64,000 bases of DNA from a virus (lineage: Duplodnaviria > Caudoviricetes), in the IMG/VR virus record IMGVR_UViG_3300036942_000148, positions 1-64,000 of that record; one strand, given 5' to 3'. A model generated the notes under the pieces. It was not told the origin of the DNA and did no database searches. It saw only the letters and a list, made by a program, of their open reading frames with translations. Position 1 is the first letter of the stretch. Every line of letters begins with the position of its first letter. Below are positions 1,703 to 24,111 of the stretch, one piece after another. Both the position numbers and the translations under genes were made by a program.

Positions 1703-1990
1703 ATGATTAAATTTGGTGACTTACACTTAATCAATAAAATAAGAAGAGAGGAAAAGTTGAAGAAAAGTAAAGATTGGCAAGTTTCTATTAGAATTACTGG
1801 GGAAGAAGACGTAGTAGTGAAAGGGATAGAAGATAAGGAAGAAGCTATGGATAAAGCTTATGATAAAGGATTCGACTCTATTATATCTAACTCTGAAGTG
1901 GAAGTGTTGTCTGCTAGAAAAATAGTAATAGATAAAAAAGAAAAAATAAATGAAAATCAATTATCTCTATTTAAAAAGGAGGAAGGTTAA
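1703..1990 (+). CDS. hypothetical protein
   Basis: 95-aa ORF with AGGAGG RBS. Confidence 0.75.
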   Translation: MIKFGDLHLINKIRREEKLKKSKDWQVSIRITGEEDVVVKGIEDKEEAMDKAYDKGFDSIISNSEVEVLSARKIVIDKKEKINENQLSLFKKEEG

Positions 1991-1991
1991 T

Positions 1992-2471
1992 ATGGCTTCT
2001 AATTATGATGATGGACTTATAATATTTCCCATTATTTTACTCATATTATCTATTTTCATCTTCTATCAAATGGGAACACAACCAGAAAATAACAGGCAGC
2101 ATGTAAAAGAAAACCAACAAAAGGAAGAAAAGAAAAATGAAGAGATTGCTAACGTCAAAGAAGGAATAATTAAATTAAGAATTGGTCAAAATAAATCAAT
2201 TATAATGCTTAATGAATATGGTAATATTAAAGAAAGAGTAAGGATTATATTTAATGGTAAAAGAAATAATGAATATGTGTTTACTAACTATTGGCGATCT
2301 AATTTTGATGATAATTCAAGATCAATAAAATTTTATATAAAAGATTATATTTATTTAAATTATTTATATAGAGGGGGAACTAATGAAGAAAAAATAATAA
2401 AACTGGAAGTGATTAATTTTAATAAATCTCAATCAATAATAACTTTAAAATATGAATTTTTAAATCATTAA
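1992..2471 (+). CDS. hypothetical membrane-anchored protein
   Basis: ATG 1992 after AGGAGGAAGG; N-terminal TM segment LIIFPIILLILSIFIFY. Confidence 0.7.
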   Translation: MASNYDDGLIIFPIILLILSIFIFYQMGTQPENNRQHVKENQQKEEKKNEEIANVKEGIIKLRIGQNKSIIMLNEYGNIKERVRIIFNGKRNNEYVFTNYWRSNFDDNSRSIKFYIKDYIYLNYLYRGGTNEEKIIKLEVINFNKSQSIITLKYEFLNH

Positions 2472-2520: not shown

Positions 2521-2928
2521 TTGAATGAATTATTAAAGAATTATTATCAAGATATGATGAGTAACTTAAAGACATTATATCCTGATAAAAGTAGAGAAGA
2601 ACTAAAAAAGTATATTAATCAAGCTACCAATAAGAAAAATATGGTTGATCCTACTATTGATTATGTGAATAACTATAAGAATACTAAAAAAGAAACTACG
2701 TTATTCAATATGACTGATAGTATATTGAAAAATGAACCTATTATTAGTGGTTATGGAACTTTATTTAAGAATCATGACGAAGGAATAAACTTGATAGCAG
2801 AGATGTTAAATTTTCTATTATCCGAAAGAAAAGTTGAGAAAGGAAAACTATTCGAAGCCATCCAAGAAAATGATGAATTAGGTATAGAATTACATGATAG
2901 AGGTCAGAAGACACTTAAGTTACTTGCT
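2521..2928 (+). CDS. family B DNA polymerase, C-terminal subunit, exon 1
   Basis: Ends QKTLKLLA; joined to exon 2 gives motif B KLLANSFYG; motif A absent, so the enzyme is split as in phiKZ/AR9-like phages. Confidence 0.9.
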
Positions 2929-4142
2929 TAGTTAAATAGGCACTCATGCTAGTGATAGTATGTTTAAACTTCCTTAATTGCTGGGATTCCTAAAGCTCTT
3001 TTGGAGATATTACAATGGATAATCAGCAGCTTTTTAAATTACAAATCTTTTATAATTAAAATATAATATAAAAGAGGAGAATAAATAAATTATGGATGAA
3101 TTAACAGAAGTATTTGAATTTAACGGAAATGAAATGGAAATATTATTGACTGAAGATGTTGATGTAGAATTTGATGGAGATTTTCTTATGAGTGGTAAAC
3201 AAGTAGCTTCCGTATTAGGATATTCTGATACAAGCGATGCTATAAGAACTCATATAGATGAAGATGATAAAATATTAATGAAAAATTCAAACTTGGTAAA
3301 CCACCAACTTAGAAATTTAGCTAACAGAGGTGAAACTTTTATTACTGAATCTGGTGTGTATGCATTGATATTTGGAAGTAAACTAGAAAAAGCTAAAGAA
3401 TTCAAACACTGGGTAACAAAAGAAGTTCTTCCAACTATTAGAAGAACTGGACAATATGATTTGACAAAAAGAAAAACCCCTAGCTATGAGCTAGAGGATC
3501 CAGTTGAAAGGGCAAAAGTATGGATTGAAGAAGAGAAAGAAAGACAAGAATTACTTCTTCAAAATACTGAATTACGCCCTAAAACTAGAGGAAATAAAGA
3601 TAGCTGGAAAGAAAATATTAGAAATACTATAGAACAAAAAATTTATTCTAAATACCCAACTATCAAAAATCCTTATGAAACTTATAATATTGTTTATGGT
3701 AATTTTAATAATTATTTGTATAAAAATTATAATACCACTTTGGATGATTTCAGAAGGGAAAAGATTTCTGAAAGCTCTGATGAAAAATGTAGCATTGGTT
3801 ATTTAAATAAATTATCAGAAAATGTATTAGAAGGATTATCAATTGATCATGAAATGCGTACTAAATTTGAAGAATTCTTAGCTGAAAAGGTAAATTCATT
3901 AGATTTAGAGTTAAAATATAAATCTGAAATTAATGAATAAATAATATGAAAATAATTAATTATAAAAGTAAAAATTTAAAAAGTTCAACGACTATCCCAA
4001 TATGGGAGTAGAGTATAATTACTAGATACTCAAAAAAGGAAGGATCTCGAAAGAGATTTTGATATAGTCTCATCTTTATAGAAATATAAAGAAGTTCATA
4101 AGAGAACTGTATAAGTTTAGTATGCTTATATGAAGGTAAATG
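2929..4142 (+). ncRNA. group I intron (IA-like) in DNA polymerase, ORF in the P6 loop
   Basis: P1 UGCU/GGCA with U2928-G2939; AATTGCTGGGA, AATCAGCAG, GTTCAACGACTA, GATATAGTC; omega-G 4142; in-frame splice. Confidence 0.92.
3092..3940 (+). CDS. intron-encoded Bro-N domain (antirepressor-like) protein
   Basis: QVASVLGY..DAIRTHID, FITESGVYALIFGSKLEKAKEFKHWVTKEVLPTIRRTGQY, then SYELEDPVERAKVWIEE; no nuclease motif seen. Confidence 0.88.
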   Translation: MDELTEVFEFNGNEMEILLTEDVDVEFDGDFLMSGKQVASVLGYSDTSDAIRTHIDEDDKILMKNSNLVNHQLRNLANRGETFITESGVYALIFGSKLEKAKEFKHWVTKEVLPTIRRTGQYDLTKRKTPSYELEDPVERAKVWIEEEKERQELLLQNTELRPKTRGNKDSWKENIRNTIEQKIYSKYPTIKNPYETYNIVYGNFNNYLYKNYNTTLDDFRREKISESSDEKCSIGYLNKLSENVLEGLSIDHEMRTKFEEFLAEKVNSLDLELKYKSEINE

Positions 4143-5666
4143 AACTCATTTTACGGTGTGACTTCTGAACAAAACTCTATATATTTCAATAAATACTTGG
4201 GAGCTTCTATCACGTATACTGGTGTTACTATCATTACAGTATCCATAATGGCTTTTGAGAATTTCTTAGCTGATAATGTTCCCTATAAGAATTTAGATCA
4301 GATCATTAAGTATATCACCAATATTACTAATGAAGAATATAATTATAAATATGAAGATCTTTTTGATGTCGAATTTAATATTGATTCTGATATTATGATG
4401 GAAAGAATATTAGATAAGACTCACGAAGATTATGCAGTTACCGATAAAGATAAAGAAATAATTAGAAACCTATTAGATAATCTTTCATATGAAGAATTAG
4501 TAAAGATATACTTTAAAAATAATTTTTTAGATATGATAGATATGTCTAATGTTTTAAGTGAATTATTAGAAAATATAGGTATTAGGGAAGATTTTAATGA
4601 TCCTAATGAAGCACCTGAAGATATAATAGAAGAGTTAGATAAGATGTGGGATATACTAAAAGATTGGGTATTTTATGATCATATTCCTATTGATCGATAT
4701 CATAGATGTATTAATGATATGAGAGAAGCAGTTCTTGTGACCGATACGGATTCTACATTTTTATCATTACACAAGTGGTATCAATATATATCTGATAAAT
4801 TTAATTTTGTTAATCCGTCATTAGAAAAACAAGTAGGTGGTATTAATATATTAACTTACATTTTATCTTACCTAATACAAGACGCATTAGATAGAATGAC
4901 TGAAAATATGAATGTACCTGATAATAAGCAACACATAATACAGATGAAGAATGAATTTTTATATAAAACCCTTATGCTGACAAGGAATAAGAAACAATAT
5001 AGCGGAAGTCTAATTGCCAGGGAGGGCAATATTCTTCACGAAAAGGAAACTGATATTAAAGGATTAGCTATTAAGAAATCATCTACTAACGAATATACAA
5101 GAGAATACTTTACAGAGTTGCTAGAAGATGAAATATTGAATGCTGATGAGATAGATCTCTCCTCCATATTAAATAAATATAAAGAATTTGAGGACATAGT
5201 TAGAACCAGTTTAACTGAAGGAGAAGTAACTTTCTCACTTCCACAAAAATTAAATGAAGAGTCAGGATATAAATTTCCATTTAGAATGATGCAATATAGA
5301 GGGTCTATACTATGGAATCATTTATATCCAGAAAAATATATTGATGCTCCAACTAAAGTTAACACACTTAAACTGACAGCAGATAATGAAGAAGATATAG
5401 AGAGATTGAAAGAAGATAACTATGAAATATATGAGAAATTAACTGAATTTGTCTTTGATGATGAAGATATGGCTCATTATGGATTTACTACCATATCAAT
5501 GCCTAAAGATGTGACAAAAGTTCCAGAATGGATTATCCCGTTCATTGATGTAGAGACTTTAGTAGGAGATAATATTAGAAACGCCATCATTCTGTTAGAA
5601 TCATTAGGTTTCCAAACATTAACAGTACTAGGTAGAGATTATTATTCCAATATAATCAGTTTTTAA
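4143..5666 (+). CDS. family B DNA polymerase, C-terminal subunit, exon 2
   Basis: NSFYG (motif B), VTDTDST (motif C), KKQY and KGL motifs; spliced product about 643 aa. Confidence 0.92.
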   Translation, partial: NSFYGVTSEQNSIYFNKYLGASITYTGVTIITVSIMAFENFLADNVPYKNLDQIIKYITNITNEEYNYKYEDLFDVEFNIDSDIMMERILDKTHEDYAVTDKDKEIIRNLLDNLSYEELVKIYFKNNFLDMIDMSNVLSELLENIGIREDFNDPNEAPEDIIEELDKMWDILKDWVFYDHIPIDRYHRCINDMREAVLVTDTDSTFLSLHKWYQYISDKFNFVNPSLEKQVGGINILTYILSYLIQDALDRMTENMNVPDNKQHIIQMKNEFLYKTLMLTRNKKQYSGSLIAREGNILHEKETDIKGLAIKKSSTNEYTREYFTELLEDEILNADEIDLSSILNKYKEFEDIVRTSLTEGEVTFSLPQKLNEESGYKFPFRMMQYRGSILWNHLYPEKYIDAPTKVNTLKLTADNEEDIERLKEDNYEIYEKLTEFVFDDEDMAHYGFTTISMPKDVTKVPEWIIPFIDVETLVGDNIRNAIILLESLGFQTLTVLGRDYYSNIISF

Positions 5667-7307: not shown

Positions 7308-8015
7308 TTGAAAGCAGACATTTTTGATATAGAAAAGTTTATAGAAATAAATGATTGTCCACAGGTTACCAATCCTGTGATGTTCGACCAAGGTAGCCAA
7401 CCAACAACAGATGGGTTATTTTCTTATGAGTTATTTGGGACTCCATCTAGTTATGATAGGAAGACTATCTATGGATATATTGATTTGAATGGGAGGTTTT
7501 TACACCCAGTAGTTTACCGAGCTATAATTAGCATGAATAGATCAATACGAGATTTAATAGCTGGAAAATCATTATTTAAAGTAGAAGATGGAAATTTAGT
7601 AGAAGCTGAAGAAGGTGAAGCCCAATCAGGAACTGGTATCGATTTCCTTTATACTAAGTGGTACAGTCTAGAATTTGAAAAAACTGACAGTGCCAAGAGG
7701 AACGCCAAGATTGAGATGATAGAAAATATCAAAAGAGATGAAGCATTTATCAATAAGCACCTTGTTCTTCCTGCTTTTTATAGAGATGTTAACATGAGTC
7801 AAGAAGATTTCGGCAGAGTGGGAATGGATGAAGTAAATGGAATGTACGCTAAGTTGATAAACTATAGTTCTTCTCTGGATAGTAACAATTCTTTTTTTGA
7901 CTACCCTAATAATTCTACTAAAAATAGAATTCAACAGACTATCAATGAAATTTATGATTACATGTTAAATACACTAGGCAAGAAAAAAGGTTACATCAAA
8001 GATAAATTAATGAGT
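7308..8015 (+). CDS. rpoC: multisubunit RNAP beta' N-terminal subunit, exon 1
   Basis: DGLFSYELFG, YGYIDL, VLPAFYRD, GKKKGYIKDKLMS; no Cys zinc-binding domain. Confidence 0.9.
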
Positions 8016-8400
8016 AAAATAACTATTTTATAGTTAGCTCCTTCTATTCTGTAAGGGAGTAGAATGAATTCTGTGAATTGCTGGAACCTCCTAAAGCTCT
8101 AGAAACTACAAAGAAACTTGTAAAAGTAAACTTGAACGTTGAGAAATCAGAAAAAATTCTAGAGATAAGATATGGTTAAATCCTAAGTCTTTTTACAATG
8201 GACAATCAGCATCTAAGGATCTTCAATATGAAGATCAAAGTTCAACGACTATCCTATTAAGGAGTACAATTTATTTAAATATCAATAAATTGGAAGTGCA
8301 GAAATGACCTTATTAAAAGGGCATATGATATAGTCTAATTATTTAACTGACTCGAAAGAGATTCAGAAATTTATAAATAATTTATAAATTTTATAATAGT
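8016..8400 (+). ncRNA. group I intron beta'-I1 (ORF-less; boundary ambiguous by 1 nt)
   Basis: P1 GAGU/GCUC; GAATTGCTGGAA, AATCAGCA, GTTCAACGACTA, GATATAGTC; AGTAAA repeated at both junctions. Confidence 0.85.
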
Positions 8401-20404: not shown

Positions 20405-20542
20405 GGTTGCCGTAAAGGCTCTAATCATAATCAGTTGTCGCATTTAAGACTCTAATTTAATTAGCAGGTGGACGGCGTATTCCACATCTCTTTATCCAAC
20501 CATTAAGGTAGCGATAGTTGCCTGTTCTATCCTCTGCTAATT
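20405..20542 (-). ncRNA. candidate novel structured small RNA
   Basis: Begins at a late-promoter +1; AAUUAGCAG/CUGCUAAUU closing stem, three internal hairpins, two repeated AUUAGA-hairpin-AAC units; no ORF. Confidence 0.55.
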
Positions 20543-22434: not shown

Positions 22435-22673
22435 CGTTTATATTATTATAGATTCATTAAATCTAAACTATATATTACTATATAGACTAGACTATATCAT
22501 TATCCTTATAGAAGGATACTTCCTTTTTCCATTAGATTTCTAATGTACTTTATAGTCGTTGAACGTTTTTTATTAGAATATAATAAAAATACGCTGCTTA
22601 TTGTCCAACTGGAGTTCTAAGCAATTAAGGAAATTTTCATAAATTATTACTAATTTATGCAGCTCTTGTTAAG

Positions 22674-24047
22674 TTAGTTTAAAAAATCAAATTCCTCAAA
22701 ATAAGATGAATTATTTTTTAGATAGTATTTATTTTCATTTAAAACTTCATTTTTATTTGGATTGAAATAATATAAATCATATATATCTATTACTGCTGGA
22801 TTTATTTTATTATCATCTAAAAATAAATTATCTATTATTTTATTTATATTCTCTTTATTCTTATAAGATATTCTTATAAAATGATAATCATTATCTTCAA
22901 CCCATTTATTTTTAGTCCAATCTCTTTTAATACTATCTTTGCTAGTAAATAAACATTTTTCAAAATGTTGAGCACCATCGTATTCAATAATAATATTATT
23001 ATTAATTAATAAATCCATTGATAGGGTATTTATATATTTTAAGTCTTCAAATCCTTTCTCTGTCTCAAAATCTATATTTTTATTTTCTAAAATGTCAATT
23101 ATTGTTAACATTGCTTTTGAAACAGGAGTTTTACAAATTGGGCAACGAGTTCCTTTATTTAAAAATAAATTAGGAGTTGGATACCAAATATGTCCACACT
23201 CTTTATGTTTTGTTTTAACTCCTGTGCGTGTATTATAATATTCTCCCATTATTTCATATCCTTCTGAAACTTCATTTACTTCTTCGATATACATTTCAGT
23301 ATTTTTATGAAGTTTTCCAGAACATCTTGGACAACCAAATGCATCTGTTTTATTTCTTTGAGCCCAATAATGAACCGTTTTAGGATATCCTTTCCACTCA
23401 AATCCACATACTTGACATTGTAGAAAACATTCTTCTCTATCTTTTGTATAATTATCTATTATTTTAATACGATTTTTAGTAGAATTATCTAATCTTTCTT
23501 GCATAACTTCTTCTGTAATAGTTATTGTCTCTCGACAAACAGTACAAGTTTCTTTGAATTTATCTTGATTTCTTGATCGTATAAATTCAGATGGTAAAAT
23601 TTCAAACTTACTATCACAAACATCATGTAATAATTCTACTTTTGTTTTTCCATCAACAAATTTTGAAAGTAAAGTATAATCATTATCATATAATTCTTTT
23701 ATTCTTGTTTTAAATATCTTTTCAGTTAATTTATGATAATCTTTACCTCTTGTATCTATATTATAATCATTTAATCTTCTTTGAATTAAAGCAATAGATA
23801 CATTAAAATGATTGGCTACTTCTTTTTGAGTCATTTCTTCATCTTTATATAATCTTTTTAATTCATCTTTTGGAATATGCTTTTTATTTGATCGTGTTTT
23901 TATATTATATTTTTTCATCTTTCTTCCAATTGTACTTGATCCACAATCAAAATAATTAGCAAGTTCTTTTTGAGTCATTTCTTCATCTTTATATAATCTT
24001 TTTAATTCATCTTTTGGAATTTTGATTTTTTTAACCATATTTGTCAC
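22674..24047 (-). CDS. intron-encoded homing endonuclease (HTH repeats, Zn ribbons, Vsr/PD-(D/E)xK-like domain)
   Basis: Two HTH units, several CxxC/HxxC motifs, DLLI..IIIEYDGAQH..RD..KN..IRISY. Confidence 0.82.
   Translation of the reverse strand: MTNMVKKIKIPKDELKRLYKDEEMTQKELANYFDCGSSTIGRKMKKYNIKTRSNKKHIPKDELKRLYKDEEMTQKEVANHFNVSIALIQRRLNDYNIDTRGKDYHKLTEKIFKTRIKELYDNDYTLLSKFVDGKTKVELLHDVCDSKFEILPSEFIRSRNQDKFKETCTVCRETITITEEVMQERLDNSTKNRIKIIDNYTKDREECFLQCQVCGFEWKGYPKTVHYWAQRNKTDAFGCPRCSGKLHKNTEMYIEEVNEVSEGYEIMGEYYNTRTGVKTKHKECGHIWYPTPNLFLNKGTRCPICKTPVSKAMLTIIDILENKNIDFETEKGFEDLKYINTLSMDLLINNNIIIEYDGAQHFEKCLFTSKDSIKRDWTKNKWVEDNDYHFIRISYKNKENINKIIDNLFLDDNKINPAVIDIYDLYYFNPNKNEVLNENKYYLKNNSSYFEEFDFLN
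23820..24020. repeat. about 57-bp identical direct repeat at 144-bp spacing within the endonuclease gene
   Basis: Both copies encode IPKDELKRLYKDEEMTQKE. Confidence 0.85.
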
Positions 24048-24063
24048 ATCCTCTAATTTTTAT

Positions 24064-24075
24064 TATATAATTGTT
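24064..24075 (-). promoter_or_regulatory. late-type promoter inside intron, driving the endonuclease
   Basis: AACA ATTATA TA upstream of the AGAGG RBS. Confidence 0.7.
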
Positions 24076-24111
24076 AGTATAGAGGTTGCAACGGTCAATT
24101 TAACATTTTGA

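Follow-up and report, generated by a model that had tools for sequence, protein, structure and literature searches.

A Bro-N gene with no detectable nuclease in the P6 loop of a phage DNA polymerase group I intron

The DNA polymerase gene and its intron

The stretch of DNA analysed here (hereafter the window) comprises the first 64 kb of an AT-rich viral contig of 78.6 kb with an estimated completeness of 31%, whose nearest named relatives are the PBS1/AR9-type Bacillus jumbo phages and the Listeria phage LPJP1. The public sequencing runs listed as containing this stretch come from oil-field and shale-gas metagenomes, with no RNA run among them. The window carries a DNA polymerase gene split by an intron, and the parts of both are as follows.

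2521-2928, plus strand: DNA polymerase exon 1 (136 aa, TTG start, ending in ...KTLKLLA), covering positions 12-148 of the divDNApol profile PF20286 (divergent family-B polymerase)
2929-4142, plus strand: group I intron of 1214 nt, opening with TAG and closing with G4142, and interrupting the catalytic motif B
2925-2942, plus strand: P1 hairpin, with 2925-2930 paired to 2937-2942 and a U2928.G2939 wobble at the 5' splice site (from the Rfam 5'-half alignment and the sequence)
3021-3040, plus strand: P4' and the 5' arm of P6; the Q element AATCAGCAG is at 3021-3029 and the P6 arm at 3030-3040
3973-3994, plus strand: 3' arm of P6 (3973-3983), and the R element with the 5' strand of P7 (GTTCAACGACTA, 3983-3994)
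3995-4142, plus strand: P7.1/7.2, P3', P8, P7' (GATATAGTC at 4061-4069) and P9, with a 3' extension of about 46 nt that ends in G4142
4143-5666, plus strand: DNA polymerase exon 2 (507 aa, beginning NSFYGV... and including the DTDS motif), matching PF20286 (E 1e-42, profile positions 359-691) and PF00136

The polymerase gene has its own AAGGAG sequence at a spacing of 11 nt from the TTG. The frame of exon 1 ends at the first intron codon, TAG 2929-2931, and joining the exons at 2928/4143 yields KLLA/NSFYG, that is, motif B, in a gap-free alignment with the uninterrupted gp217 of Bacillus phage vB_BpuM-BpSp; this junction bears out the original prediction that the intron lies in a DNA polymerase gene. 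Just upstream of the polymerase gene, ORF 1950-2471 (window 1977-2458) encodes a predicted membrane protein of 173 aa that is absent from a related strain (contigs L007, L008 and L010, described below).

A search of the undivided region 2850-4250 with Rfam returned only a local piece of 29 nt, and the two halves of the intron were searched separately. The 5' half alone (2919-3036) matched positions 1-107 of RF00028 (19.3 bits, E 0.003), and the 3' half alone (3972-4091) matched positions 126-253 (33.8 bits, E 2e-7). Because each half matches its corresponding part of the model, the insert is placed in the P6 region; the single halves remain below the RF00028 gathering score of 50 bits because of the 932-nt insert, which the model cannot bridge. 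The P6 stem that closes this 932-nt loop has 11 base pairs, formed by the arms TTTTTAAATT (3031-3040) and AATTTAAAAA (3973-3982) together with the pair C3030-G3983. The RF00028 halves and the stem thus agree with the earlier placement of an ORF in a stem-closed P6 loop between Q and R. With the ORF deleted, the intron aligns with seven other introns of the contig along the whole core (P3, P4, P6, P7, P8, P9), and it scores 85.7 bits against a covariance model of the 3' halves of the contig's introns. A group I core, the U.G pair at the splice site, the terminal G and a sensible spliced product together identify this element, on sequence grounds, as a group I intron and not a chance resemblance.

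The intron-borne Bro-N gene

The P6 loop contains a protein-coding unit with these features.

3074-3079, plus strand: ribosome-binding site GAGGAG, 12 nt upstream of the ATG
3092-3940, plus strand: intron ORF, intact, 282 aa, in a frame different from that of exon 1
3167-3433, plus strand: Bro-N domain (residues 26-114; PF02498 at 83.1 bits, cut-off 25.6), predicted to be winged-helix-like with pLDDT 80-95
3500-3574, plus strand: long linker helix (residues 137-161), common to Bro-N/KilAC antirepressor-type proteins
3587-3937, plus strand: orphan C-terminal domain (residues 166-282, about 115 aa), a predicted bundle of five to six helices

An intact reading frame with its own ribosome-binding site is what had been predicted for this loop, and it is spaced 51 nt from the 5' arm and 32 nt from the 3' arm of P6. 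Between the 5' splice site and the ORF we found neither AACA-N6-TA nor TATATATTAT (the AR9-type promoter motifs), and sigma-70-like sites are not enriched; since no AR9-type promoter motif precedes the ORF within the intron, the ORF is most simply taken to be transcribed together with the polymerase gene. A possible hairpin over the ribosome-binding site (3046-3075) was considered and dropped, its stability being no better than that of shuffled sequence (z -0.18). The frame is kept, with 0 differences in 849 nt, across five further contigs that encode the identical protein: L007, L008 and L010 represent a strain type about 97% identical to the window, L009 is identical to it, and L011 is intermediate.

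The N-terminal half of the protein is readily classified. In a structure search against BFVD the Bro-N model was matched by Bro proteins with E values down to 2e-11, and PHROG Ant families cover residues 2-165 and 24-212. Its nearest N-terminal relative, P0004, is a Bro-N plus KilAC protein with 54% identity over residues 1-160, encoded in the immunity module of a temperate phage, adjacent to a CI-like repressor. The Pfam score, the Ant families and P0004 all support the domain composition first proposed, a Bro-N domain followed by an antirepressor-type helix. The KilAC-bearing relatives align with the intron protein only until about residue 160, where the likeness stops at ...LRPK, and the KilAC/ANT domain (PF03374) has no Pfam match in the intron protein at E<=1.

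The C-terminal tail and the search for a nuclease

The tail was originally described as being of unknown family, and so it has turned out: its sole relative in a profile search of 1.84 billion representative proteins is P0003, and no Pfam, PHROG or NCBIfam family matches it. ORF6C (PF10552) is not matched in the tail by Pfam, and hhalign against ORF6C tails gives no significant score (P 0.56); the Atlas neighbours of the intron protein (pRha, Bro-N and ORF6C, with feature scores of 0.75-0.80, ORF6C at 0.75) serve as leads only. Compared with P0003 (56% identity) the tail has a pN of 0.31 with saturated synonymous sites, and the overall dN/dS is about 0.2. These values point to purifying selection and hence to a functional domain.

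We can therefore hardly credit the view that the ORF has no function, being open by chance or the remains of a decaying gene. The life cycle of homing endonucleases predicts decay after fixation, and no polymerase allele lacking an intron at 2928/4143 was found, as that view would have it. Against it stand the intact 282-aa frame with its 83-bit Bro-N match, a dN/dS of about 0.2 relative to a free-standing homologue only 56% identical (the tail included), and the lack of any difference among the five further contigs, in a stretch that occurs in the runs of four studies.

Sequence searches for a nuclease were negative. No family of the GIY-YIG, HNH, LAGLIDADG, PD-(D/E)xK or Vsr-like EDxHD type was matched at E<=1 in Pfam, and none in PHROGs, NCBIfam or PDB sequences; a PDB sequence search with the intron protein returned no match at all. 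The predicted model of the tail, built on two sequences and with one confident model in five, is all-helical and matched no nuclease fold in a fold search, and we know of no homing-endonuclease fold that is all-helical. HD and Rx4-6H patterns are absent from the tail, and its one His is not conserved in P0003. The statement that GIY-YIG, HNH, LAGLIDADG and PD-(D/E)xK motifs are lacking thus holds for the sequence, and judged from the model the tail is unlikely to be an unrecognised nuclease.

These results have to be set against the possibility that the ORF is the intron's own homing endonuclease, in which Bro-N would recognise the intron-less allele, an unrecognised centre in the tail or elsewhere would cut or nick it, and repair would copy intron and ORF together. 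The position in the P6 loop, the separate ribosome-binding site, the insertion at a catalytic motif and the purifying selection on the tail would all fit such an enzyme, as would the report that Bro-N and KilA-N are DNA-binding modules of GIY-YIG/T5orf172 putative homing endonucleases (PMC8096241). The lack of any nuclease family at E<=1, a tail predicted to be all-helical without a matching nuclease fold and the unconserved His argue the other way.

Homologues and the link of Bro-N to nucleases

The only full-length homologue of the intron protein, P0003, is free-standing (56% identity) and encoded on a 3.5-kb contig, L001. Positions 936-2854 of that contig hold a tandem array of three Bro-N genes, P0122 (a truncated copy), P0121 (a chimera) and P0003, flanked by two topoisomerase genes, one for a GyrB C-terminal and one for a GyrA N-terminal part. 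P0121 lies directly upstream of P0003, and its first 90 or so residues are 61% identical to the intron protein. Its C-terminus is PD-(D/E)xK-like (motif VDVY...IVIEYDENGH), with a weak match to DUF559 (E 9.5e-4, just under the cut-off), and its relative P0123 carries PF18741, a restriction-endonuclease-like family. From this chimera with a shared Bro-N half it follows that the same Bro-N subtype also serves a probable free-standing homing-type nuclease. P0121 does not have the last Bro-N helix and shares only about 90 residues, so that it looks like a derived chimera and not like an ancestor.

A second family, a Bro-N protein of 248 aa, is encoded at L002:3288-4747 and L003:496-1955, 18 nt after an HNH_3 gene and between genes for DNA polymerase A and a D5-type primase. 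A MAFFT alignment with this family spans 77-85% of the intron protein, tail included; for homology of the two tails hhalign gives no significant score (P 0.17).

These neighbourhoods complicate a nuclease-free reading of the protein, for the ORF sits where a homing endonuclease gene is classically found, and P0003 in a slot typical of free-standing endonucleases. One way to accommodate this is that the ORF belongs to a Bro-N homing-endonuclease lineage, as a domesticated member or a partner, and would have kept recognition and lost the nuclease, to act as a repressor, a protector or the targeting half of a two-part system. The order P0121-P0003, the place of the array between GyrB-like and GyrA-like genes and the 248-aa family directly after an HNH_3 gene are in keeping with it, and CapR of the Vibrio PLE satellite offers a documented case, being a domesticated, nuclease-free DNA-binding domain of an endonuclease that acts by binding DNA (PMC8096241). 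The derived look of P0121 weighs against this descent, as does the ordinary nature of the next-nearest relatives, which are antirepressor genes of lysogeny modules; moreover, the genes adjoining the ORF in the window include no partner nuclease, and the tail shows no significant relation to that of the 248-aa family. We consider this origin rather unlikely. A more specific version, to which we would give only a slender chance, is that the protein would supply the nuclease-free half of a homing system, either two-part or antagonistic, and share a DNA site with a separate Bro-N PD-(D/E)xK nuclease (compare P0121 and P0003) that it would guide or block; the cargo of the intron would then be a targeting or anti-homing factor.

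An orthologous intron without ORF

A contig of IMG/VR, 3300035034_001260 (L004, with a near-copy, L012), has an ORF-less intron of 238 nt at the same polymerase codon (L004:4763-5000). Its polymerase is 78% identical to that of the window at the protein level, and the intron is a full RF00028 match at 57.2 bits. Over the 5' part from P1 to P4, 53 of 55 bases are identical to the window intron, compared with 84% identity in the nearby exon, and P6 is a generic short hairpin, as in the ORF-less introns of our contig. The ORF is thus either an addition to, or a deletion from, otherwise orthologous introns. The generic P6 of the ORF-less form points to addition, and the sequence comparison therefore favours a gene that would have been added to a pre-existing ORF-less intron.

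A metagenome scan for polymerase alleles turned up none without an intron at 2928/4143; its yield was limited to a copy of the L004 lineage and a contig beginning past the site. Two joints, 2969>4055 and 3941>4061, were considered as candidate ORF-less alleles and rejected, for they have 26 letters on one side and most likely represent paralogous intron cores.

Strain comparison and mobility of the intron

In contigs from four studies the ORF-bearing intron is present in both strain types, and no allele without the ORF is convincing. In the L007/L008/L010 strain, which is about 97% identical overall, exon 1 differs from the window at 11 of 408 nt (2.7%) and the first 590 nt of exon 2 at 41 positions (6.95%), compared with a single difference in the 1214 nt of intron and ORF (G/A at 2948, in P2) and none in the ORF. 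The identical tract 2949-4195 is the longest among 5720 aligned nt with a mean divergence of 2.8%; the next longest measure 791 and 474 nt. Such near-identity of intron and ORF amid diverged exons looks like recent homing with short co-conversion tracts, of which it is no proof. The diverged block on the left adjoins the indel of ORF 1950-2471, and that on the right adjoins two additional ORF-less introns in exon 2; independent imports that halt at a heterologous intron would give the same patchy picture.

The two additional introns, missing from the window, are found at L007:4642-4914 and L007:5127-5378 (window ~4732/4743 and ~4954/4958), and in L004 the second of the two positions is likewise occupied by an intron. 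The exon of 212 nt between them is 82% identical to the window, a divergence that resembles co-conversion. The presence or absence of ORF-less introns at two polymerase sites between strains indicates that an intron can come or go here without bringing its own ORF.

For the reading of the ORF as the intron's own endonuclease this comparison cuts both ways. A near-identical intron and ORF between diverged exons, in which identity breaks off 34 and 54 nt beyond the splice sites, is what homing would leave behind. Yet there are other identical tracts, of 791 and 474 nt, and the flanking divergence can be explained by separate imports, on the left with the ORF indel and on the right with the two introns. 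Together with the negative nuclease searches, this makes an enzyme of the intron's own quite unlikely in our judgement.

Other introns and RNAs of the contig

Motif scans and Rfam reveal eight introns of the polymerase-intron type in the contig. The eighth, at window 8030-8365, right after ORF 7308-8033, is below the Rfam gathering score; it was detected by its P/R/S motifs and by the 3'-half model (57.7 bits), and it has a P5 extension like the one in the polymerase intron. Intron 1 of the RNA polymerase beta-like gene (window ~22435-24111, minus strand) is also of group I and is the second in the window to bear an ORF, at 22674-24047. The encoded protein of 457 aa combines two HTH repeats with several zinc ribbons; it also gives a weak match to the CapR-homology family (PF21817, E 0.004) and weak DUF559/DUF2726 matches around IIIEYDGAQH. 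This endonuclease-like ORF indicates that the phage has a conventional pairing of intron and endonuclease elsewhere in its genome. Three other observations concern RNAs. A skipping-rope RNA (RF02924, 61 bits) adjoins the beta-gene introns at window 20460-20541 on the minus strand. In Bacillus phage PBS1 (LC680884.1), the 3' halves of four introns of the polymerase-intron type (56-71 bits; L017:3599-4853) lie in a partly unannotated stretch between PBS1_1160 and PBS1_1140, which are apparent pieces of one split gene. An IMG/VR contig has a RAGATH-8 RNA (152.9 bits; L019:822-1075) that precedes a Bro-N gene by about 430 nt.

The original prediction had summed up the locus as a Bro-N regulator carried instead of an endonuclease. 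The Bro-N domain, the linker and the failure to find a nuclease stand, whereas the roles that it suggested, regulator for the protein and safe harbour for the intron, are conjectural; the contrast that it drew is complicated by the P0121 fusion, by the near-identity of the intron between strains and by the ORF of the beta intron.

Comparison with known systems

The td intron of phage T4 is a group IA2 intron whose ORF is looped out of P6, and its product, I-TevI, is a GIY-YIG nuclease with a binding domain made of a zinc finger and an HTH. Like td, our intron is of group I and interrupts a phage gene of DNA metabolism at a conserved motif, with a stop codon right after the 5' splice site and with a P6-loop ORF that has its own ribosome-binding site. 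It differs in its product, which in place of a nuclease consists of Bro-N and an orphan helical tail with no nuclease detected. The polymerase introns of the Bacillus phages SPO1 and SP82 (I-HmuI and I-HmuII) and Bastille (I-BasI) lie in family-A polymerases, and their ORFs encode HNH nicking enzymes; the host gene in the window is a family-B polymerase and the ORF has no HNH match. Introns of the SPO1/SP82/Bastille type home between related phages, according to work cited in PMC12908238.

The protein itself shares Bro-N and the linker helix with Ant-type Bro-N/KilAC antirepressors of temperate phages, from which it differs in having no KilAC/ANT domain and in being intron-borne, in a PBS1/AR9-related phage, with no repressor gene nearby. 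It also recalls the nuclease fusions of Bro-N and KilA-N, and CapR, where Bro-N occurs as a module of mobile nuclease genes and CapR sets the nuclease-free precedent; unlike these, it lacks both the T5orf172 and the CapR domain, and its DNA binding is putative. Group I introns are known to carry cargo other than endonucleases, namely rps3 in fungal mitochondrial LSU introns and the IStrons of Clostridioides. They likewise combine a group I ribozyme with a gene other than a homing endonuclease gene, in different hosts and with different cargo, and we found no phage example with Bro-N cargo.

No described precedent for this arrangement was known at the outset, and we found no published intron-borne Bro-N gene in the literature searched. 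An intron 3' half within 1.5 kb of a Bro-N gene was detected at none of 80 IMG/VR loci, nor in L001 and L002, with a model that is tuned to the type of this phage and may miss other classes; twenty of those loci, searched with Rfam as well, likewise showed no intron. The kind of intron and the P6-loop slot are thus known, and for a Bro-N cargo without a detectable nuclease in that slot we found no precedent.

A proposed explanation and its meaning

The explanation that we prefer, and to which we would give about an even chance, is a nuclease-free binding protein of the Bro-N family, encoded in the P6 loop of an intron that is older than the insertion. It would be a binder of the Bro-N/antirepressor class that may bind either DNA or a partner protein, with the orphan helical domain standing where KilAC sits in its Bro-N/KilAC relatives. 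The Bro-N gene would have been inserted into the loop of an intron that had no ORF, and would share the transcript of the polymerase gene, with translation starting from its own ribosome-binding site and the ribozyme making the insertion harmless to the polymerase. The protein itself would not cut DNA, and intron and ORF would spread between co-infecting strains by ordinary recombination or with a nuclease supplied in trans.

Group I introns of phages are understood as partnerships of a ribozyme with a homing endonuclease. If the protein described here is truly nuclease-free, phage introns can be neutral docking sites for other genes inside essential genes, which raises the question of how such an intron spreads. 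Should the protein cut DNA, it would represent a new type of endonuclease with a Bro-N recognition module, and possibly a new targeting scaffold. The material for a comparison is in hand, in the form of the orthologous intron without ORF, the two strain backgrounds and the free-standing homologue that neighbours a nuclease chimera.
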